Below are positions 41,908-52,364 of a stretch of DNA of 58,174 nt, in pieces. A program made the position numbers and the translations under genes. The notes beneath the pieces are model-generated. The model was not told where the DNA came from. It ran no database searches and was given only the letters and a program-made list of their open reading frames with translations. Each line of letters starts with the position of its first letter. The first letter of the stretch is position 1. Location of the stretch: IMG/VR virus record IMGVR_UViG_3300032309_000708, positions 1 through 58,174 of that record. One strand, given 5' to 3'. This DNA is from a virus (taxonomy: Duplodnaviria; Caudoviricetes).

Positions 41908-43350
41908 ATGTCAATCAATTACGGCCCAATAAACGAGATTAAAGATTTAGCGTTTAAATACTCTAAGCCACAACTTGGACGTATGGCGCAGCTTGGGTTG
42001 ATCGATACCCAAAAAGCTGTATTAGCAGCTATGATGAGAGAACGTGTTGCTAAACAAGATGCACAACCGCCGACCGCAACAGTAGCGCAAGATGCACTTG
42101 GCTTACAACCTCCACCACAACAACAAGCTCAACCGCAGCCGCAACAAATGGGCATGCAGCAAGGGCAACCTCAACAGGCTCAGCCACAACCACAACTAGC
42201 TCAAGCCCCTGCTGGCATAGAGTCTTTACCTGCCGGTAATGTTGGCAACTACGCTGGTGGTGGCATTGTTGCGTTTGATGAAGGTGGTGAGGTACCGGGT
42301 TACGCTCGTGGTGGGTTTCCTACTATGCCAAGTACAAATATTCAGTTAGGTCAACTTAAAGGCCCACAGGAAAAAACAATTGAAGAAATAATTGCTGAAC
42401 AACAAGGCGTATACGAGCAACAAGGCTTAGTAAACCCGTATGAAGGGTTAATGCAACAGCAAGAAGCTAAGCGTGGTGAACTCGATACACGTAGAGAACA
42501 AGCTAAAGGTGAGTTCTTAATGAATCTTGGCACCGGTTTAATGCAGGCTCAAAAAGGTAGAGAGTTAGCAGCTTTAGGTACAGGTGCGCTTAAAGGCATG
42601 GCAGACTACAAAGATGCTATGAAAGATTTACGTGCATCTGAAGAAAAACTTGACGATAGAATCGGCGCATTTAAGTTGGCTGATTATCAGGCTAAGAAAA
42701 CCGGCACAGATGCTGCTATTGCTAGACGTGACTCGCTTCGTGATAAAGTTATAGAAACCGAAAATAAAAATATCGAAGCTCAAAATGCTGTTGCAGTTGA
42801 AGGCAAGAAACTTGAGATGCAAGGGTTTAATACCGCAATGGGTTATAAAGGCACTGTCGATGCCGCAAGTATACGCAACGCAGCTATGCCTGACTTATAT
42901 AAGATGGCAAATTCACCCGACATGTTAAAATCTATGCCTAACTCTACGTTTGCTCAACGACTAGAAGCAGTAGGTAAATACGCGCATCCTAAAGATTCGT
43001 ATAACGCATTAACATCACGTTTTAACTTATTAAATAAAACCATTGCTGAGACTAACTATCCATTAAGTATATCGTACAACTTGGCAAAGACAGATGCGGA
43101 GAGAAAAGAAATTTTAGATAAGATGAATGCAAATGCTACTAGAATTAGAACAGAGCAGCAGTGGACCGCGTCTGATAATGCTAGACTGCAACGCGAACAA
43201 GCTCAATTAGATGGTACAACACAAACACAAGGTCAAGCTTTACCACTGCCCCCTACCGAAGCAGAACTTCAAAAAGGGCAGCTATATACTACTGCAAGAG
43301 GCCCAGCTATTTGGAATGGAACAGCGTTTGTAGCAGCACCTGCAAGATAA
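41908..43350 (+). CDS. putative ejection protein
   Basis: Q/P linker, YAGGGIVAF motif, coiled coil. Confidence 0.65.
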   Translation: MSINYGPINEIKDLAFKYSKPQLGRMAQLGLIDTQKAVLAAMMRERVAKQDAQPPTATVAQDALGLQPPPQQQAQPQPQQMGMQQGQPQQAQPQPQLAQAPAGIESLPAGNVGNYAGGGIVAFDEGGEVPGYARGGFPTMPSTNIQLGQLKGPQEKTIEEIIAEQQGVYEQQGLVNPYEGLMQQQEAKRGELDTRREQAKGEFLMNLGTGLMQAQKGRELAALGTGALKGMADYKDAMKDLRASEEKLDDRIGAFKLADYQAKKTGTDAAIARRDSLRDKVIETENKNIEAQNAVAVEGKKLEMQGFNTAMGYKGTVDAASIRNAAMPDLYKMANSPDMLKSMPNSTFAQRLEAVGKYAHPKDSYNALTSRFNLLNKTIAETNYPLSISYNLAKTDAERKEILDKMNANATRIRTEQQWTASDNARLQREQAQLDGTTQTQGQALPLPPTEAELQKGQLYTTARGPAIWNGTAFVAAPAR

Positions 43351-46300
43351 TGGCAAATACATTTTCGTTTGAAGACGCTTTAAAACCAGCGCCACAACAA
43401 GGGCCTACTACGTTTTCGTTTGAAGATGCGTTTAAGCCCGCCGTAACTTCTGGGCCGAATCCACTAGACCCACAACAACCTGCGCCAGTACAAGCAGCTC
43501 AACCTGCGCCTACACCTACACCTGTTGCTAAAGAAGAACCCGGCCTTTTAAATGATATATCTAAAGGCTTTCAACGTATACCAGCTAGCTTAGCTGAACA
43601 ATACGAAGGGATATTTACACGTAAAACTGCGCAGATGGCCAAGGGCAATCAAGTCCAAACTGCGTTGTATAACATGATTGATGCTGGTCAAATTAAATCC
43701 GACAGCGATCTTAATAAAGCTTATTTAAAATTACTGTATGGTAAAGAGCAACTATCTCCAAAAGAAATACTAGCGCATGGTAATTTAAAACAAAGTTTGG
43801 CAGCCGCAGATGCGTATGAGTATATGAACTCGTCACCAGAGCATCGTGCTGCTATGAGAAAAGGCGTTGAAACTGCAGCGTCTCAATCTTTAACTAGGTT
43901 TGAAGAATCACGAGCACGTAGTAAAGAACGTGAAGCAGAACTAGAAAAGCTTGCCCCAAGAGTTAGACAGTTTACTGATATTGGTAGTCCGTATGAAGCG
44001 GCTAGTTGGGCGGCTGGTAGATTGCCTGAGTTTGTCGGTACAAACCTTCCACAGATAGCTGCGGGTTATTTTACTGGTCCCGGCGGTCTTGCCCTTACTA
44101 GCGTAATACCAGAACTTTCAGGTGGAACTAAAGAACGTGTTAAGTACATGGAAGGTATTGTTAAAGACGAACCTGATCCAGCTAAACGCAGTCAAGCTTT
44201 AATTGATTACATAAATAAAACGCAAGATGTTACGTTGCAGGCGGCTGTGCTTAATGGTCTAACGGACATGATTATTGGTCCTGAAGCCGAAGCAGTTAAG
44301 CTTGGTGTACAAAGCGCATTTAAAGAAGAGGTACGCAAAGAAATTCTTAAGAAGCTACCAAAAGTTGTAGGTGGTGAAGCTTTAGGTGAAGGCGCTACTG
44401 GCGGCATCCAAGAAATTACCAATATGGTAGCGGAAAGATCTTTGGGTGAGATGCAAGGTGGCGTATTTACTGCTGAGAATGCTAAACGTATTATCAACTC
44501 AATGGCTGATGAAGCACTTGGGGGCGCAGGTGTATCTACTGGAATGCAACTAACTAAAGCCGCGTTAGCTAAGAAAAACTTAGCCGACACAGATACGCCT
44601 GAAGGCAGGGCAATGCGTGGCCTTGATGATTTAGTTAATCGAGAAGAAGCCGGAACAACAGAAGATATGACCGTTCCGCCTGCCCCACCTGCTCCACCCA
44701 CAGCACCACAACGTGCAATACCTACCGAACCACTATTTACGTTTGATACCCCTGAACAGGCGCAAGAGCGTACTAACCTATTAAAAGTTAACCGCCCTAA
44801 AGAAAACTTTGCGGTTCAAGAAACAGAAGATGGCAAATTCGGCGTATATCAAATACCAGTCGGAGAAACAGGAGGTACAAATGTTACCCCACCTGCAGTA
44901 AATAAAAAAGAAGTAGAACAAATAGCTAGAGGTGGGTGGTTTGAGTTATCCGATGCAGAGCGTTTAGAACTGCAGGGGGATTTACAGTTTCTTAAAGATT
45001 CAGGAAGAACTATAACCATAAATAGTATACCCGAAGAAATTCGAGCAAAACTAAGCCATTCTGCATTAATAAATTTAAAATCCGCGTTAAACCAAGATAT
45101 CAATGCAACTATAGCTGCGCTAACGCCGTCTAGCAAAAAAGAAACAGCCACAGGAGGTGAAGATGTTACCCCACCTATCACAGACGCAGATGGAGCTGGC
45201 ACTGAAAATATTGGCGAACCCCCACAAGGTACCGGTGCCGGAATCCCTCCATCATCTGAGGGAACAGGACTGGGTGTTTCTGATACAGATGTTACGGGAG
45301 CTGGAGTATCAGAAGGAATTCAGCCTCATACACTAACCAGAAAGCAATTCCAAGAAGCTAATACAGACCTTCAAACGTTTAATAATTTATTTTCGCCAAA
45401 CTTTGAACTTACAGACAACTTAGATACGTTATTAACTAGCGGCACTGAAAGCGATCTTCACGTTGCAAGCAAAATATTTGGGCTTAAACCTGTTATAGGT
45501 AAAAAACGCGCTGCGGAAAATATTTCAGCGACTATTAAAAAAATGAAATTGGCAGAGGGTTTAGATCCCGCACAAGTGGCGGGGATGAAGTTGCCTGAGC
45601 TAAAAGAATTAGCCAACGAACTTGGAATATCTACATACGGAAATAAAGATGTACTTATATCAAAAATTAATAACTTCTACCCTAATTTAGAAAGTAAAGT
45701 TGAAGAAAATTTAAAAAATTATGCCCACGAAACCGCTGTTCGTAGTGCTGTAGTAAATGGAAAACCTGTAAGTGATGAGGTACTAAAAGACTATCCGGAG
45801 ATTGCTGCGTACGCAACCCCATTGGGATCAGGGGCATATACTCAAGCTATAAAAACGTTGTCAAGGAAAATGCTACCGCAACATCTAATGGACGTGCCAT
45901 CTACTGCGCGACACCTTAGAGAAGATGCAGAGCAATCAGGTGATGGAAGACAAGCTGCCGTGCTAAGGGACATTGCCGATGCAATGGAAGAGTATTACAA
46001 AAACGCTTTTGGTATAAAAGAAGAAGCACCTGCAGCTGAAGAAACTGTACCTACAGAAGAAGAAGTAACCGCGCTTAACGACACTATTGAAAAAGGTATA
46101 AAGGATAAACTTGAAGGTTTATTAGTCGGCGATGAAGTTAGATTTGGTAACACCCCCGGCGTTGTTGTCGGCTTAGAAGGTGATTATGCTAAGTTTCATT
46201 CCGCTAGTTCATCTAATCCTAAAGCGTACACACGCGTACTAAAAAAACAATTAACTTTTGTATCGCGTCCTAATACAAATTTTACATCTGCGTCTTCAAA

Positions 46301-49300
46301 AGAACCTACAAAATTTGGCGAAGAATCGGGGATGCTTGACGTAAACAAAGCTAGGCTTACTAAGACGCTTGGCGCAAATATGTATAAGGAAAACCTTGCC
46401 GACGTTGCAGTTAAAGAGATGCTGCAAAATTCTTTTGACTCTGTAAAAGCTAATGTTTTCTTTGGAAATATTAAAGAAGGCAAAATAGATATTAAATTTG
46501 ATTCAGGTAAGCGAACTATAACTATTACAGATAACGGGGAAGGCATGACGCCTGAAATCGTTAGAAAAGCTTTCTTTACTATCGGTGGGTCACACAAAGC
46601 TGGTGTACCTATGGAACTGCAAAGTGGCGGTTTTGGTATGGCAAAGCTTGGCTTTATTATGGGGTCCGAAAGTATACAGTTAAATACTGTTAAAGATGGC
46701 GTGCGCACTAAAGTTGATGCTACTTCTGAAGATATAGGCAGTGACAACTTTAAGATACAAAAAAGCCCTGCTCCAGCAAATGAGCATGGCACTACTATAA
46801 CAGTAAAAATACCTGAAACCTATACCGATGCCCGCAGTGGTGATGAAAAATCAGTTTATTTTCCTTATGGCTTATATGGTGTAAGTGCATTAAATCGTCC
46901 ATTAATAGGGCCAGTAGAAGTAAATGTAGATTTTGATGGGGATAAGAAGACCCTTCCTATTGGGGTTAACTTTGATTTTGAAGCTACGCCAAAACTAACT
47001 ACAGTTAAGTTCCCTTGGGGTACAGCAGATGTGTATTTTGGTGTAGAGCGCAAGCCAGAAAGATACGAACCAAAACATAGAGTTTTAAGTAGCGGTGTAT
47101 ATCAGTTTGATTATAATAAATTTAATTTAGGGCAAAATGAACCAATACCATACGACATCATAGTAGATGTTAAATCTGCTGTGGAAGCTACAGATAGAGA
47201 ATATCCGTTTGAAAAAAATAGAGGAAGTTTTAATGAAGTAATTATAGAAGATATAGCATCATTAGCGCAGTATCTTGCAAAAGTAGCTAGAGGCCACGAA
47301 GCAGAAGGATTGCAAGAAACATTTAAAGATATTGTAACTATGCCTCGTACAGAGGTGGGTACAGAAACGGCTGAAGCATCTGCAAAACTTAGAAAAGTTT
47401 TTGACCAGCGTGGCGCAGACAAGGGTACGTACGAGTTACCACCAATGCCTAAAGAAATTATAATATCAGGCGGTACAGTTACAGATAACAAAGGTGCTGT
47501 GCTAGTAGAAAAAGAAAAAACAGAAGATAGAAAACGTGAGTCTGGGTTTGAAGCGGATAAAGCTGCGCCTGAAATGTCCCAGTTCTTAGTGGATATGAAG
47601 CAGGACCCACGACAGCCAATATTTCATAGTAATGTAAATACAGACTTATTAGAAATTGGTCGTAAATATGGTAACCCAGAACAGTTCTTTGCCGAGTTAG
47701 GTACTCTAGTAGTAGAGATGAAAGAGGAACTATCTAAGAGTGGTATATGGACATACGACCAGTTATCTCCAGAAAATCTATTTTTTGCCGGTGTATCCAT
47801 AGATAAAGGCTACGGCGGTGTGTTTATAAGAGTGCCATTTAAAGGTATTTTACTTAACCCGTTCTATGACTGGGGTGCAAAAACTTTATTCGGCGTTCGT
47901 CAAAACTTTTTAAACACAATGATTCATGAGATTGCACACCAAACAAGTGGTGAGCATGATCGCTCTCATGAAAATGCCATGCTAAAGATAGAACAGTATT
48001 TAGCAGATACTGGCACATTAGATTATTTTAGAGACGCTATACTAGATATTCTAGTAAAGCATGAGTCAACTTTTACCGCAATGCGGGAGGCGTATGGAAG
48101 ATCAACAACAAAGAACGTTGCAAAGTCTCTTGAGGATTACGGGAAATCTCCCACCTCAGCAGAAATTGGAAGAGATGAGGGCCGCCGCACAGACACGTCT
48201 GGTAAATTATCAGAACGAGGGGAACCAGTACGGAGTAGCGACTTACGTACCGATAGTGGCGAAACTGGAAAAAGCGAAGTCGGTAGAGGAGGCCCTAAGT
48301 TTTCTGTAAGCAACGAAGAGAAGATTATTAACCAAGGCATGGTTGGGGGTGACTTACACCCAACAGTAGTAGACGCTATTGCTAATAACGACCTTAACGG
48401 TGCGCTAAAACTAGTAGCTGATCGTTTATCTAGTATTGGGTTTAAAACCAAATCGGGTTACTTTTTAGGGCAGCTTGCAAATAGACTAGCAGATTTAAAC
48501 TTGCCTACAGGTATACGTATTGGCGACCAACGTAATTTAACGCGTAGGTCTATTGATTTATCCACTGCCCCTGCACAGATACAACTGTTTAATTTTATAC
48601 GTGTGGCTATGCCAGATGTGTATAACAAGTATTTCCAAGGTTACGATAAAGCTGAAAACCTTGAACAAGTGTATGCCGGTCTAAAGCATATTCAAAACAA
48701 TCCAAAGTTAAAGTCAGTGTTGCCACAGTACGAATCAATATTGCGGTCGTTTGACAACAACATGGTTGCTTTAAAAGCTCTTGGTGTTTACTACCCAAGA
48801 TTCGATGAAATAAATTTAAACGATAAACTCAAAGACGGGCTTTCGTATCAAACGTTTTTACATGAAGTAGTACACGCTGCTACAGAAATACTTTTGCAAA
48901 CGCCAGCAAATGAGCGTACCGCTGAACAAAATGAAGCTATTGCAGAGTTAGAGAAACTATTTAATGCAGCAAAAGCTAATTCGAATGTTGCCCATTATGG
49001 GTTTACAGATTTATCAGAATTTATAGCAGAGGTGTTTACAAACCCGGTATTTATAAAAGACTTAAAGGGTATACCATATCCACCTGCACGTACAAATATA
49101 TTTAATAGGTTTGTAAAGATAATAATGGATTTGATTGGTATGGACAACGTTGCTGGCCGTGCAATGATAGAGGCCCAAAAGTTGTTTAATGCTGACCGTC
49201 CAAACATACCAATGTCGGCGGGTCCTAGATTTGCAACAAGGCAACGTGGACCTATTAGTTCTAAATGGCGAATTGTAGAAGATACCATGAAGAGCGTTAA

Positions 49301-52300
49301 GAATTGGGAAGTTATTAAGAACGACTTAGTTCCTGCAATGTGGGACGCTACTAATGGTGTGTTCCGTAGCGCTATGCTTGGTGTTATGAACTTACGTCAG
49401 ATTGCTGACGTTACTAAAACTAAGTTCCCGCAGATTGACGCTGCTATTCGTACGATTGAAAAGATGCTTGCTTATCGTGGCAAGATTATGAACGACGGCG
49501 GTGAAATTGTTCAACGTTGGACTAAGGCTCAAGCTAAGAACTTAAAAGGTTCGCAGTTGCTAGGTCGTGTTATGTTAGAAGCTACTATTCGTGGGGTAGA
49601 AGTTGACCCACAAAGTAGTCAATATAATCCACTTAATTTTGTAGTAAATAAAGAATTAGTGGACGCTTGGGACGCATTAGGTCCAGACTTCCAACAGATA
49701 TACAGGGATGTACGGGATTTCTATAAACGTGCCGTAGAAGAAACAGTACGCCTAATGAAAGAACGTGCTAACAGTGTAACTGACCCTGTAGAGCGCCAAG
49801 AACTTTTAGACAGGATTGATGCACAGTTTGGCCCTGATAAATTAAAAGGTCCGTACTTCCCGTTGCGTCGTTTCGGTGAGTTCTGGTTCCAAGTGGGTGA
49901 AGGTAACTTTAAAGAATTCTATATGTACGAAAACCGTATAACTAGAACTATAGCTATGCGTGTTAGAAAGCGTGAATTATCCAAAGGTAATGCGCGACAA
50001 CGTGCGCTAGCAGAAACAATAAGTAAGGGTAACGGCGTGTCTACGTTGTACAGTCAGAACGTGGGTACTACTAAAATACTACAAGACGTACAAGATATAG
50101 TTGATAGTATAGGTAATAGCGTGGTTGATACAGCTACAGGCTTACCTAGAGATAAAACTCAAGATGAGTTAAAGGGCGAGATCAGAGATAGCTTAAACCA
50201 GCTTATCTACATACTGCTACCACAACAGAGCATGCGTAAGATGTTTATTAACCGCAAAGCAATTCAAGGCGCAAGCGGCGATATGTTACGTGTGTTTGCT
50301 ACACATGCGGTTCACAGTGCTTACCAACGTTCACGCTTTAAATATGCTCAAGACTTTATGGATAACTTATCCAATGCGCAAAATTGGATTGCTTCGTTTG
50401 CAAAAGGTGATAAGGCTGAAGTTTATCGTGATTATGTAAATGAAGTAGAAAAACGTTCTAAAACAATTTTAGGTACTGAAGATACTAGTTTGGCTGCAAG
50501 AGCTGCGGGTAAGGCTTCTGAGGCAGTGTTCTACTTTATGTTGTCTGCACCGTTTACTGCTATGTTAAACCTAGTGGGCTTTGCTCAAATAGCTATGCCG
50601 TACATTGGTGGTAGATATGGCTACGCAAAAACTAATGCCCGTATATTAGAAAACATGGGTAAGTATTTGCAGACAGTACCGAAGCGTACATTCTCACCTT
50701 TAGTAAACGGTGCTGTAATGGATATGTCTTTCCCTTCTATAGTAGAAGGTGGTAACTTAACTGGCATATTAAAAGACGCGGCACAACAGCTTTTAGACGA
50801 AGAGCAAATTAATATTTCTTTAACTAATGATGTTTTAAATGTTGGTTCAGGCCCAACAGCGGCATATACTGGCACATACAACGCTGTTAAACGTGGTATA
50901 TCCGCTTTGTTCCATCAATCAGAACGTCTGAACCGTGAGATTACATTACTGTCGGTTGTGGAACTTGCATATGAAAAGCTCATGTCCGAGCCTATCAAAG
51001 ATGTTAAAGGTATTGTTAAACGTGACGCACAGGGTCAACCTATGCGTTATACCGACAATGCTACAACCTCTGATGGTACAACTCAGTATTCACAAGAAGC
51101 TTTAGAGTTAGCTATTAACGAAGCTAAAGATATTGCGGGCTTATCGCTTGGTGACTTTACTCGCCAAATGAAACCTAGATTTTTTACGCCACCAATATTA
51201 AGTGTATTAACTAAGTTTAAACAGTATGCAGTTTTAGCTTCTTATGCAGTTATTCGCAATGCACATTTAGGATTACTCAAACCGTTTTCGAAAGCAGAGT
51301 TAAATGAGTTGCGTGGTGTACTAGAAGAGCATTACAAAACTGCTGTAGATAAAGATAAGATAATTGAACAGCAAATGGCTGAAGCGCAAACGCGCCAAAA
51401 AGAAATTGCTAAAGAAGCGCGTCGTAGGCTAGCAGGTATATTAGGTATGACGTATTTGTTTGGTGGCTATGTTGCCTTGCCGTTTTTTAGCACGGTTACA
51501 CCTATACTGGTTGGCATGTTGGCGGGTGACGAAGACGATGAGGACGACTTCTTTGACTGGGAAAATTGGTTTAAGAATTATATGGAAACCGAATTTGGTG
51601 GTTATGTCGGCGCTATGTTACAGAAGTTCGGTGTTGACCAAGAAAAAGCAAATAAGGTAGGTAAAAAAGTTAGTGAGACCCTTGTATATGGTCCAGCTTC
51701 TACAGTTACTGGCGGTGCTTTATCTGATCGTGTTAGCTTAGACTTAAAAAATCTATGGTACAGAGATGGTCGTTATTCACCTGACACCCGTGAAAGTATT
51801 GTAGAAAGCATGATTGCTAACGCAGGTCCTGTGGTTGGTTTAACTGTAAACGCAGCAGACGCATGGGATATGATACAAGAGGGTAAAGTTGGCCGTGCGT
51901 TTGAGAGAATGGCTCCAGCTCTATTTGCTAAACCAGTAACCGCAGCTCGTTTAGCTACTGAAGGCGCTAAAACAAAAGGTGGTGACGTTCTTGTAGATGA
52001 ACTTACAACTACAGAAATAGCATTGCAAGCAATTGGTCTACAACCTTTACGTGTAGCAAAAGCACAAAAAGCTTCAATTGAAACAGTAGAAAAAGTGCAG
52101 AAGATTCAGGACCAGTACAGCTCCTTAATGAATAGGTTATGGATGGAGCGTAACAACCCACAAGAATTTAATGACGCACTTGAAAAACTAAACGAGTTTG
52201 CTATGAAACATCCGGGGTATAAAATAAACGGCAGGACTATAAAAGAGTCGTTTAAGAAACGTGCTGAAGATGCAGCGTTGGCAGATGTGTTTGGTGCTCG

Positions 52301-52364
52301 TATACCTAAGCCGTTACAAAGCGACCCTACAGTTACGAACATGCCAAACTACGGTAAGGATTAA
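43350..52364 (+). CDS. giant polyvalent ejection protein (3004 aa): SAP-like motif, GHKL ATPase, two HExxH metallopeptidase domains
   Basis: TAATG-coupled start; LPELKELA..LGI..GNK..LI; EMLQNSFD, DNGEGM, GGFG and HGT GHKL boxes; HEIAH; HEVVH...EFIAE. Confidence 0.85.
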   Translation: MANTFSFEDALKPAPQQGPTTFSFEDAFKPAVTSGPNPLDPQQPAPVQAAQPAPTPTPVAKEEPGLLNDISKGFQRIPASLAEQYEGIFTRKTAQMAKGNQVQTALYNMIDAGQIKSDSDLNKAYLKLLYGKEQLSPKEILAHGNLKQSLAAADAYEYMNSSPEHRAAMRKGVETAASQSLTRFEESRARSKEREAELEKLAPRVRQFTDIGSPYEAASWAAGRLPEFVGTNLPQIAAGYFTGPGGLALTSVIPELSGGTKERVKYMEGIVKDEPDPAKRSQALIDYINKTQDVTLQAAVLNGLTDMIIGPEAEAVKLGVQSAFKEEVRKEILKKLPKVVGGEALGEGATGGIQEITNMVAERSLGEMQGGVFTAENAKRIINSMADEALGGAGVSTGMQLTKAALAKKNLADTDTPEGRAMRGLDDLVNREEAGTTEDMTVPPAPPAPPTAPQRAIPTEPLFTFDTPEQAQERTNLLKVNRPKENFAVQETEDGKFGVYQIPVGETGGTNVTPPAVNKKEVEQIARGGWFELSDAERLELQGDLQFLKDSGRTITINSIPEEIRAKLSHSALINLKSALNQDINATIAALTPSSKKETATGGEDVTPPITDADGAGTENIGEPPQGTGAGIPPSSEGTGLGVSDTDVTGAGVSEGIQPHTLTRKQFQEANTDLQTFNNLFSPNFELTDNLDTLLTSGTESDLHVASKIFGLKPVIGKKRAAENISATIKKMKLAEGLDPAQVAGMKLPELKELANELGISTYGNKDVLISKINNFYPNLESKVEENLKNYAHETAVRSAVVNGKPVSDEVLKDYPEIAAYATPLGSGAYTQAIKTLSRKMLPQHLMDVPSTARHLREDAEQSGDGRQAAVLRDIADAMEEYYKNAFGIKEEAPAAEETVPTEEEVTALNDTIEKGIKDKLEGLLVGDEVRFGNTPGVVVGLEGDYAKFHSASSSNPKAYTRVLKKQLTFVSRPNTNFTSASSKEPTKFGEESGMLDVNKARLTKTLGANMYKENLADVAVKEMLQNSFDSVKANVFFGNIKEGKIDIKFDSGKRTITITDNGEGMTPEIVRKAFFTIGGSHKAGVPMELQSGGFGMAKLGFIMGSESIQLNTVKDGVRTKVDATSEDIGSDNFKIQKSPAPANEHGTTITVKIPETYTDARSGDEKSVYFPYGLYGVSALNRPLIGPVEVNVDFDGDKKTLPIGVNFDFEATPKLTTVKFPWGTADVYFGVERKPERYEPKHRVLSSGVYQFDYNKFNLGQNEPIPYDIIVDVKSAVEATDREYPFEKNRGSFNEVIIEDIASLAQYLAKVARGHEAEGLQETFKDIVTMPRTEVGTETAEASAKLRKVFDQRGADKGTYELPPMPKEIIISGGTVTDNKGAVLVEKEKTEDRKRESGFEADKAAPEMSQFLVDMKQDPRQPIFHSNVNTDLLEIGRKYGNPEQFFAELGTLVVEMKEELSKSGIWTYDQLSPENLFFAGVSIDKGYGGVFIRVPFKGILLNPFYDWGAKTLFGVRQNFLNTMIHEIAHQTSGEHDRSHENAMLKIEQYLADTGTLDYFRDAILDILVKHESTFTAMREAYGRSTTKNVAKSLEDYGKSPTSAEIGRDEGRRTDTSGKLSERGEPVRSSDLRTDSGETGKSEVGRGGPKFSVSNEEKIINQGMVGGDLHPTVVDAIANNDLNGALKLVADRLSSIGFKTKSGYFLGQLANRLADLNLPTGIRIGDQRNLTRRSIDLSTAPAQIQLFNFIRVAMPDVYNKYFQGYDKAENLEQVYAGLKHIQNNPKLKSVLPQYESILRSFDNNMVALKALGVYYPRFDEINLNDKLKDGLSYQTFLHEVVHAATEILLQTPANERTAEQNEAIAELEKLFNAAKANSNVAHYGFTDLSEFIAEVFTNPVFIKDLKGIPYPPARTNIFNRFVKIIMDLIGMDNVAGRAMIEAQKLFNADRPNIPMSAGPRFATRQRGPISSKWRIVEDTMKSVKNWEVIKNDLVPAMWDATNGVFRSAMLGVMNLRQIADVTKTKFPQIDAAIRTIEKMLAYRGKIMNDGGEIVQRWTKAQAKNLKGSQLLGRVMLEATIRGVEVDPQSSQYNPLNFVVNKELVDAWDALGPDFQQIYRDVRDFYKRAVEETVRLMKERANSVTDPVERQELLDRIDAQFGPDKLKGPYFPLRRFGEFWFQVGEGNFKEFYMYENRITRTIAMRVRKRELSKGNARQRALAETISKGNGVSTLYSQNVGTTKILQDVQDIVDSIGNSVVDTATGLPRDKTQDELKGEIRDSLNQLIYILLPQQSMRKMFINRKAIQGASGDMLRVFATHAVHSAYQRSRFKYAQDFMDNLSNAQNWIASFAKGDKAEVYRDYVNEVEKRSKTILGTEDTSLAARAAGKASEAVFYFMLSAPFTAMLNLVGFAQIAMPYIGGRYGYAKTNARILENMGKYLQTVPKRTFSPLVNGAVMDMSFPSIVEGGNLTGILKDAAQQLLDEEQINISLTNDVLNVGSGPTAAYTGTYNAVKRGISALFHQSERLNREITLLSVVELAYEKLMSEPIKDVKGIVKRDAQGQPMRYTDNATTSDGTTQYSQEALELAINEAKDIAGLSLGDFTRQMKPRFFTPPILSVLTKFKQYAVLASYAVIRNAHLGLLKPFSKAELNELRGVLEEHYKTAVDKDKIIEQQMAEAQTRQKEIAKEARRRLAGILGMTYLFGGYVALPFFSTVTPILVGMLAGDEDDEDDFFDWENWFKNYMETEFGGYVGAMLQKFGVDQEKANKVGKKVSETLVYGPASTVTGGALSDRVSLDLKNLWYRDGRYSPDTRESIVESMIANAGPVVGLTVNAADAWDMIQEGKVGRAFERMAPALFAKPVTAARLATEGAKTKGGDVLVDELTTTEIALQAIGLQPLRVAKAQKASIETVEKVQKIQDQYSSLMNRLWMERNNPQEFNDALEKLNEFAMKHPGYKINGRTIKESFKKRAEDAALADVFGARIPKPLQSDPTVTNMPNYGKD
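45163..45336 (+). CDS. nested +1-frame gene A inside the giant ORF (57 aa)
   Basis: AGGAGGT-4nt-ATG; MLPHLSQTQMELALKILANPHKVPVPESLHHLREQDWVFLIQMLRELEYQKEFSLIH; host frame is a G/T/E/P low-complexity linker. Confidence 0.7.
   Translation: MLPHLSQTQMELALKILANPHKVPVPESLHHLREQDWVFLIQMLRELEYQKEFSLIH
48094..48309 (+). CDS. nested +1-frame gene B inside the giant ORF (71 aa)
   Basis: GGGAGG-3nt-ATG; amphipathic helical MEDQQQRTLQSLLRI...AKSVEEALSFL; host frame is a G/R/S/E linker. Confidence 0.6.
   Translation: MEDQQQRTLQSLLRITGNLPPQQKLEEMRAAAQTRLVNYQNEGNQYGVATYVPIVAKLEKAKSVEEALSFL

Follow-up and report, generated by a model that had tools for sequence, protein, structure and literature searches.

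A conserved gene nested in the +1 frame of a giant phage polyvalent-protein gene, with a product predicted to bind the adjacent zincin domain

Does a 71-codon open reading frame (ORF) lying wholly inside a giant phage gene encode a protein of its own, and if it does, what might that protein do to the enzymatic domain beside which it is encoded? This question was raised by a 58,174-nucleotide (nt) stretch of DNA from a virus of the Caudoviricetes (IMG/VR record IMGVR_UViG_3300032309_000708, positions 1 to 58,174; this whole stretch is the window of our analysis), in which a 3017-codon ORF at 43311..52364 would encode a giant polyvalent virion or ejection protein. All features discussed are on the + strand, and residues (amino acids, aa) of the giant protein are counted from 43311. 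The nested ORF (48094..48309; 71 aa and a TAA stop at 48307-48309) begins with an ATG at 48094-48096, 3 nt downstream of the Shine-Dalgarno (SD)-like sequence GGGAGG (48085..48090), and reads in the +1 frame relative to the giant ORF, sharing its phase with a second nested ORF, gene A, that begins at 45163. It covers the last helix of a compact zincin (HExxH) domain (47523..48146, aa 1405-1612, with the motif HEIAH at 47925-47939, aa 1539) and the variable, G/R/S/E-rich main-frame linker that follows (48147..48311, aa 1613-1667). A preliminary description of this locus had given the GGGAGG, the ATG, the 71 codons, the frame and the phase shared with gene A just as we find them, and had proposed that the ORF is an embedded immunity-type gene for the preceding module. 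Judged by its conservation among related loci and by the codon positions at which it varies, the nested ORF is a genuine overlapping gene and not a chance ORF.

We collected relatives with a three-sequence alignment of the zincin region (A1) as query, which gave 20 loci in viral contigs and 29 in metagenome contigs. One of these (L052), a 47-residue match with in-frame stops, was dropped from all counts, and another that was only 30% identical (L051) was analysed apart from the rest; the window and the other 47 made a set of 48 loci, which came to 38 distinct sequences once ten duplicates were collapsed. The +1 frame was open in all 48 loci, with an open stretch of 69-83 codons in 47 of them and of 110 codons in L047, and the ORFs counted from the conserved ATG had 66-78 codons. 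This ATG occurred at the same site in 47/48 loci; in L022 a main-frame change from Tyr to Phe has removed it and another ATG is present two codons upstream. A +1-frame stop was found three codons before the nested ATG in 45/48 loci. In the window the frame is open from 48058 and has an earlier ATG at 48061 (which would give 82 aa); the relatives, however, conserve only the ATG at 48094. The nested products followed the consensus MxxQQxKTLQSLLRxTxxxPPQHxLEELxxAxxTxLxLYxQExDxEGxxxYxPLxxxxxxAKSxxELExL, with no comparable conservation in the main-frame linker. The divergent L051 also had a +1 ORF at the same place, which matched the nested family in a local hidden Markov model search (E 2e-8).

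The choice of synonymous codons in the giant frame suggested that the start of the nested ORF is maintained for its own sake. The AT of the nested ATG comes from a main-frame Tyr codon, which was TAT in 37/37 cases, compared with 411 of 866 background Tyr codons (47%), and the next main-frame codon began with G wherever the conserved nested ATG is used. Two codons upstream of the nested start, a main-frame Arg was encoded by AGG in 22/29 cases, compared with 8% of 988 background Arg codons. Choosing AGG yields GAGG or AGGGA 5-7 nt before the ATG in most relatives, while the 3-nt spacing was confined to the window and its closest relatives; the short spacing that the preliminary description had counted against the ORF is thus correct for the window and not typical of the family. 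SD-like motifs precede 22/32 of the window genes. Binomial-type probabilities drawn from such counts are upper-bound impressions and not exact, the sequences sharing descent. By these codon choices, the nested ORF has its own conserved translation start signals.

A second line of evidence came from diversity per codon position, which we computed for positions 1, 2 and 3 of the giant frame (m1/m2/m3). In main-frame-guided alignments, m1/m2/m3 was.26/.17/.59 over the 100 codons of the zincin domain,.16/.16/.36 over the 28 codons where both products are conserved, and.56/.45/.39 over the 55 linker codons; in a nested-frame-guided alignment of the linker part, nested positions p1/p2/p3 gave.45/.35/.56. 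In the linker, therefore, the wobble position of the giant frame is the least variable and that of the nested frame the most variable. Sliding windows along aa 915-1656 (37 sequences; L029, cut short upstream, was omitted here and from the alignments used for invariant zincin columns) had m3 highest in 45/48, and m3 fell below m1 only in three windows, at aa 1597-1656. In nine independent ungapped close pairs, the differences fell on nested positions 1/2/3 in the numbers 18/28/65 (chi-square p 6e-8). Mean pairwise identity over the same linker nucleotides was 0.42 in the nested frame and 0.27 in the main frame, compared with 0.675 (main frame) and 0.316 (+1 frame) in an upstream control region.

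The giant frame, for its part, was not simply carried along. Given the nested protein, the probability of an open giant frame had a median of 0.0076, yet this frame was open in 38/38 sequences, and none of the 794 nested codons beginning with AA, AG or GA came after a codon ending in T. That the giant frame stays open against such a low probability means that both frames are maintained, i.e., true dual coding. From these patterns the linker sequence appears to be dictated mainly by the nested gene, and we consider it very probable that the nested ORF is a real translated gene. With the frame open in every locus, the codon-position variability inverted and the start signals conserved, the preliminary description's idea of a genuine embedded gene has held up well.

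AlphaFold2 predicted the nested product, from a 38-row alignment, to be a bundle of three to four helices (predicted local distance difference test, pLDDT, 88.4; predicted template modelling score 0.74), in agreement with the helical product expected from the window alone. The family members (66-78 aa) have a median isoelectric point of 6.6, and there were 0 cysteines in 38 sequences. Searches of Pfam and PHROGs with all 38 members found no family, a sequence profile of the nested family against the PDB gave nothing below E 0.02, a Foldseek search of the nested model against the PDB and BFVD gave no match at E<=0.001, and the best score in the ESM Atlas (0.81) was below the usable range. A profile search of 1.84 billion representatives was more productive, identifying 54 proteins at E<=1e-3, 34 of them at E<=1e-10, most of about 70-100 aa. 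These included longer proteins in which the nested-family domain is read in the ordinary frame (P0010, P0005, P0026, P0028 and the P0050 group). P0010, a 637-aa metagenome protein, has the domain at residues 415-481 and an N-terminal RNase_T-type exonuclease domain; it may represent a further mosaic protein of phage origin that employs the helical domain in cis. A search for homologous proteins at longer lengths returned only P0010, and a search for the contig context of P0010 returned only relatives of its exonuclease domain; P0005 had no match in viral contigs, P0039 had one match in a metagenome-assembled genome (MAG) contig without a zincin neighbour and none in viral contigs, and the cluster members of the nested-family relatives had no informative names.

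The domain also occurs as a gene of its own. A Sphingomonadaceae MAG contig has a free-standing 197-aa gene (L060:4554-5147) with a strongly hydrophobic C-terminus, the N-terminal 70 residues of which matched the nested family with an E-value of 1.3e-17 (local search); its neighbours were three amidohydrolase_2 genes together with genes for a LysR regulator and a zinc dehydrogenase, and the surroundings held neither a zincin nor any phage gene. Because the same domain sits in ordinary frames or stands free elsewhere, the nested gene is unlikely to be a product of de novo overprinting, and we infer that of the two frames the small gene is probably the older.

To which of the flanking domains does the nested gene belong? 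Upstream of the zincin the giant protein has a GHKL ATPase domain resembling the N-terminal domain of HtpG/Hsp90 (46401..46781, aa 1031-1157; HATPase_c_3, E 5.6e-12), for which the closest PDB entry by sequence, with profile A3, was HtpG 2ior_A (E 8.2e-9). We matched the GHKL domain, the middle region and the zincin in 36/37 loci (L029 is truncated) and partly in L051. Within the ~1.3 kb fetched, the domain that comes next in the window was matched in 13/37 loci, in 11 of them directly and in 2 behind an insertion; the nested gene was present in all the loci, whatever domain follows. Since it is present throughout while the next domain differs in 24/37, the nested gene is part of the module upstream of it, and it starts within the last helix of that module. 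Judged by this distribution, the nested gene and the GHKL-zincin module are genetically linked and co-inherited. The preliminary description had predicted that the ORF would accompany the module and be absent otherwise; its first half agrees with every GHKL-HExxH homologue examined (the 38 distinct sequences and L051), while the second half fails, since the domain stands alone in L060 and is read in frame in other proteins that lack an HExxH motif.

Two features of the module deserve mention in their own right. The segment at 46308-47520 (aa 1000-1404) holds the GHKL domain and, after it, a conserved middle region of ~230 residues without a family match, and it is in itself unusual that a virion protein should join an Hsp90-like ATPase with a small Wss1-like zincin. 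In L051 (L051:1326-1830) the GHKL-zincin module ends its protein ~28 codons after the stop of the nested ORF, so that the nested gene there overlaps a C-terminal tail and not an interdomain linker; this layout could be an intermediate arrangement.

The partner domain is a zincin by its HExxH motif, its conserved third ligand and its modelled fold. H1539, E1540, H1543, H1549 and H1553 were invariant in 37 zincin sequences (alignments A3 and A4), and the AlphaFold2 model of the domain had a pLDDT of 85.4. Its best fold match was Wss1 (5xbn_A; Z 8.0, root-mean-square deviation 3.2, 113 aligned residues), followed by matches such as 5ln5 (Z 7.5), YbeY-like proteins, SPRTN (Z 5.6) and aminopeptidase catalytic domains, all with middling Z values. 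Foldseek likewise placed Wss1 first for the zincin model (E 0.13), and the Pfam WLM gathering threshold was not reached (E 0.095; 13.2 bits against a cut-off of 26). The domain can thus be likened, on its model, to a small Wss1-type zincin, yet it is no scored member of the WLM or SprT-like families.

When we co-folded giant aa 1000-1612 (alignment A3) with the nested protein (alignment A2), the three runs gave interface scores (ipSAE) of 0.79, 0.78 and 0.77, while the best of 3 controls scored 0.00; the partner had a pLDDT of at least 84, and the runs shared at least 88% of their contacts. In the calibration of the tool, 58/80 solved complexes and 2/110 mismatched pairs came up to this mark, figures that apply only roughly to a co-fold made, like this one, from our own alignments. 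On the giant side the confident contacts were at aa 1501-1503 (YGG), 1521-1536 (the loop and the initial turns of the active-site helix), H1539, 1549-1551, 1553-1554 and 1557-1574. On the partner side they were at residues 4-17, 23-41 and 43-50, among them the conserved polar E26, Y39 and position 41; three invariant residues (L9, L12 and Y51) were outside the partner contact list and would fit a role in the core. The 50-nt coding overlap of the two chains does not explain the interface, because the overlapping residues (chain 1, 596-612) lie outside it. We found no solved complex resembling the zincin-nested pair by sequence, and no solved relative of the nested partner. The models place the nested protein on the active-site face of the zincin, which supports that position as its seat, and we think it reasonably probable that the nested protein binds the zincin. 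Binding of the product to the module had been supposed from the sequence of the window, and the co-prediction (ipSAE 0.78 against 0.00 in controls) is in line with it.

The explanation to which we lean, by a small margin over its being wrong, is that of an embedded gene whose product is a trans-acting keeper or inhibitor of the adjacent zincin, made in the producing cell and absent from the injected protein. The 216 bases at 48094-48309 are dual-coding, the giant frame specifying the last zincin helix and then a flexible interdomain linker, and the +1 frame an independent 71-residue helical-bundle protein, translation of which would begin on the late mRNA at an ATG of its own behind an SD-like purine run. 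It is mainly the small protein that is under selection, the giant frame needing little there beyond staying open. The small protein is tied to the Hsp90-like ATPase plus zincin module and moves with it between mosaic polyvalent proteins. In the producing cell it would sit on the active-site face and keep the zincin inactive, as an immunity protein does or as a prodomain would if it were supplied in trans, and the packaged giant protein would be delivered without it and so become active, either for self-processing or against host targets. As for the origin of the arrangement, the ORF of the module may have read through a pre-existing small gene and become fused to downstream domains, the out-of-frame reading of the small gene becoming the linker. 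The inhibitory role taken by itself we put forward tentatively, as something slightly short of an even chance on the predicted complex. With the linkage to the module and this complex, the inhibitor or immunity idea of the preliminary description has gained in silico support and may be called partly supported.

Several results weigh against the keeper explanation. Neither the catalytic Glu (chain residue 541) nor the second His (544) was among the confident contacts, and the complex is a matter of model confidence, obtained with our own alignments, unpaired or with pairing unknown. The same giant protein has no nested ORF of comparable length after its second zincin (HEVVH), so the suggestion that each module carries its own neutralising gene does not generalize. 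The nested domain is also found away from zincins: 16 of the 18 nested-domain matches longer than 110 aa had no HExxH, single and probably chance HExxH motifs were present in P0055 (293 aa, among the 18) and in P0048 (82 aa), none of 9 ORFs examined in the vicinity of L060 contained an HExxH, and the neighbours of L060 are amidohydrolases, a LysR regulator and a dehydrogenase. Peptidase domains of polyvalent proteins have been proposed mainly to self-process those proteins (Iyer et al. 2017, PMC5512222), a proposal that leaves the label of toxic effector unestablished for this module. Finally, an open +1 frame is no great surprise in a gene of this size and composition: a +1-frame ORF of at least 82 codons beginning with ATG arose in 6.5% of 1000 codon shuffles of the giant gene, and when main-frame residues were fixed and synonymous codons were drawn from each gene's own usage, the probability of an open +1 frame given the linker residues had a median of 0.36 (range 0.013-0.76; 0.026 in the window).

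The second HExxH region itself (48775-48893, aa 1822-1861) had weak matches to SprT-like, DUF6782 and DUF3810 families (E 0.014-0.066). No +1 ORF of more than 41 codons was found between it and position 50197.

The alternative that survives best is a real translated gene whose product is not an inhibitor, acting instead as an assembly or packaging chaperone or adaptor, as an activator or cofactor of the ATPase-zincin, or as a host-directed factor that happens to be encoded in a permissive linker. All the evidence for a real gene applies equally to it, the occurrence of the domain in zincin-free contexts fits a general protein-binding helical module, and predicted binding can not separate inhibition from chaperoning or activation. 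Two observations speak against it, however. In the models the nested protein contacts not a peripheral surface but the conserved active-site helix, His 1539 and the region of His 1549/1553, and the gene is strictly tied to the 3' end of the zincin in 38/38 distinct sequences and in L051. We regard this alternative as unlikely, though it is the one that the keeper explanation has most to reckon with.

A far less probable alternative is that the +1 frame is entered by programmed ribosomal frameshifting from the giant frame, which would produce a truncated ATPase-zincin isoform ending in the helical domain. That the same domain occurs in frame within longer proteins (P0010, P0005) is what such an isoform would look like, and the SD-like element of the window could be counted in its favour as well, for in prfB an SD-like element 3 nt upstream of the shift site stimulates +1 frameshifting. 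However, because a +1-frame stop precedes the ATG by three codons in 45/48 loci, the shift would need to fall inside a 3-codon window, in which we saw no slippery sequence by eye. Furthermore, the ATG is kept by synonymous choice in 37/37 Tyr codons and its loss is compensated in L022, as expected for an initiation codon and not for a shift site. On the upstream stop and the conserved ATG we rejected the frameshift isoform.

It is just as improbable that no protein is made at all, with the open +1 frame a by-product of a linker poor in hydrophobic residues and its conservation due to constraints at the nucleotide or RNA level. The openness figures given above lend this alternative what strength it has: stops in the +1 frame need T at codon position 2, so that openness costs a linker with few hydrophobic residues next to nothing, the median probability of openness is 0.36, and the window ORF taken alone is non-significant. 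Openness or length alone is weak evidence for a nested gene, and it is the comparative evidence that carries it. The same giant gene also has two other stop-free +1 stretches, of 80 codons (50197-50439) and 69 codons (51451-51660). In the closest relative (L002) stops break up each of them, and they are therefore chance ORFs that serve as internal controls; the nested ORF, by contrast, survives to 30% identity. Its variability follows the nested periodicity (p3>p1>p2; p3>p2>p1 in close pairs), its fold is predicted with confidence by AlphaFold2, and its profile matches proteins read in the ordinary frame elsewhere, such as that of L060. A chance ORF was accordingly rejected on comparative conservation and nested-frame substitution periodicity. 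An Rz/Rz1-type spanin was rejected as well, the nested sequences having no cysteine to serve as a lipobox Cys and a predicted fold that is a soluble helical bundle.

Outside the module, the giant gene likely starts at ATG 43350 and not at the TTG 43311 listed by the ORF finder. This ATG overlaps the stop of an upstream 480-aa gene as TAATG (43346-43352), an overlap that suggests translational coupling. Pfam searches found a SAP motif at aa 757-790 and LPD39 at aa 2019-2184 (E 9.3e-18), and the giant protein also matched a PHROG for a DarB-like C-terminus; genes upstream matched a DNA ejection protein, an acetyltransferase, tail fibres and portal. By its LPD39, HATPase_c_3 and SAP matches, its DarB-like C-terminus and its ejection-protein neighbours, the giant protein is a polyvalent protein sensu Iyer et al. 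2017. We queried GenBank phages, as DNA and as protein, for the region, for the module, for its zincin and for the nested protein, and obtained only two weak Listeria-phage fragments, both matching the GHKL part.

Gene A, the nested +1 ORF in the same phase upstream (45163-45336, 57 aa), lies on a P/T/G-rich linker and has counterparts in two close relatives (L061:1501-1674 and L062:1501-1674). Relative to these, 12/15 and 13/19 of the nucleotide differences fell on its own third codon positions, and its protein was 96% and 93% identical to theirs while the giant-frame residues changed freely. Gene A is probably a second genuine embedded gene on this pattern, a thin test with only two close relatives. 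More broadly, one may speculate that linkers of polyvalent proteins can be small genes that have been read through, each enzymatic module having an out-of-frame keeper made only in the producer that silences it until injection; we hold this broader idea to be doubtful. Were it true, the giant protein would hold two keepers (the 48094 ORF and the 45163-45336 ORF), and genes that are annotated automatically as single ORFs would conceal a further layer of regulators. Nested ORFs are discarded by gene callers, and with them this family has gone unnamed in Pfam and PHROGs and is absent from GenBank phage records. Should the nested product indeed mask the zincin, we would learn how an enzyme destined for delivery by the virion is silenced while it is being made, and prodomains and neighbouring genes would be joined by a third means of linking inhibitor and target. 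An ORF that reads through a small gene and fuses with the region beyond would, in addition, be a concrete route for building mosaic polyvalent proteins. A change of TAT to TAC is silent in the giant frame and removes the nested start codon.

How does the nested gene compare with known systems? Across 8.1 million papers and 0.36 million preprints we met, at the level of abstracts, with no account of a gene nested within that of a polyvalent or ejection protein, and supplements may hold domain tables that bear on the zincin family. The giant protein resembles the polyvalent proteins of Iyer et al. 2017 (PMC5512222), being likewise a mosaic of great size that is delivered by the virion and combines peptidase, ATPase, DNA-binding and LPD domains; it differs in its linker-nested gene, which is no part of the architecture described there, the word 'overlapping' occurring 0 times in that main text. 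Overprinted genes of phiX174 and RNA viruses share with our case two frames under simultaneous selection with one dominating the constraint. They differ in that the nested domain here has ordinary-frame relatives and is therefore probably no de novo product; it is the linker frame that looks younger.

The closest case by architecture is Rz/Rz1 of phage lambda, where the smaller gene lies entirely within the larger one, in its +1 frame; the two are translated and their products bind one another. Here too a small gene is wholly inside a larger phage gene in the +1 frame; however, the nested protein has no cysteine or lipoprotein signal and no lysis context, the host gene is that of a 3017-codon virion protein, and the overlap falls on an interdomain linker beside a zincin. 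In effector-immunity cassettes such as CdiA-CT/CdiI, Rhs and the type VI secretion Tse/Tsi pairs, the immunity gene normally comes after the stop codon of the toxin. The likeness is a small, fast-evolving, putative binder encoded directly 3' of an enzymatic domain and shuffled with that domain as a module, whereas the small gene in our case lies inside the same ORF, in another frame and with more domains following, and the carrier is a polyvalent protein ejected by a phage and not a secreted toxin. Among metalloprotease systems, in serralysin-Inh, protealysin-emfourin and the minigluzincin zymogens a small protein or segment on the active-site face keeps the zincin silent, and zymogen structures (4jiu, 4jix) were among the fold matches of our zincin. 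The predicted seat of the nested protein on the active-site face is similar, although the 71-aa bundle has no sequence or fold relationship to those inhibitors and prodomains and would be supplied in trans from an overlapping frame. By analogy, then, effector-immunity cassettes and protease-inhibitor pairs would be the closest functional counterparts of the nested gene.

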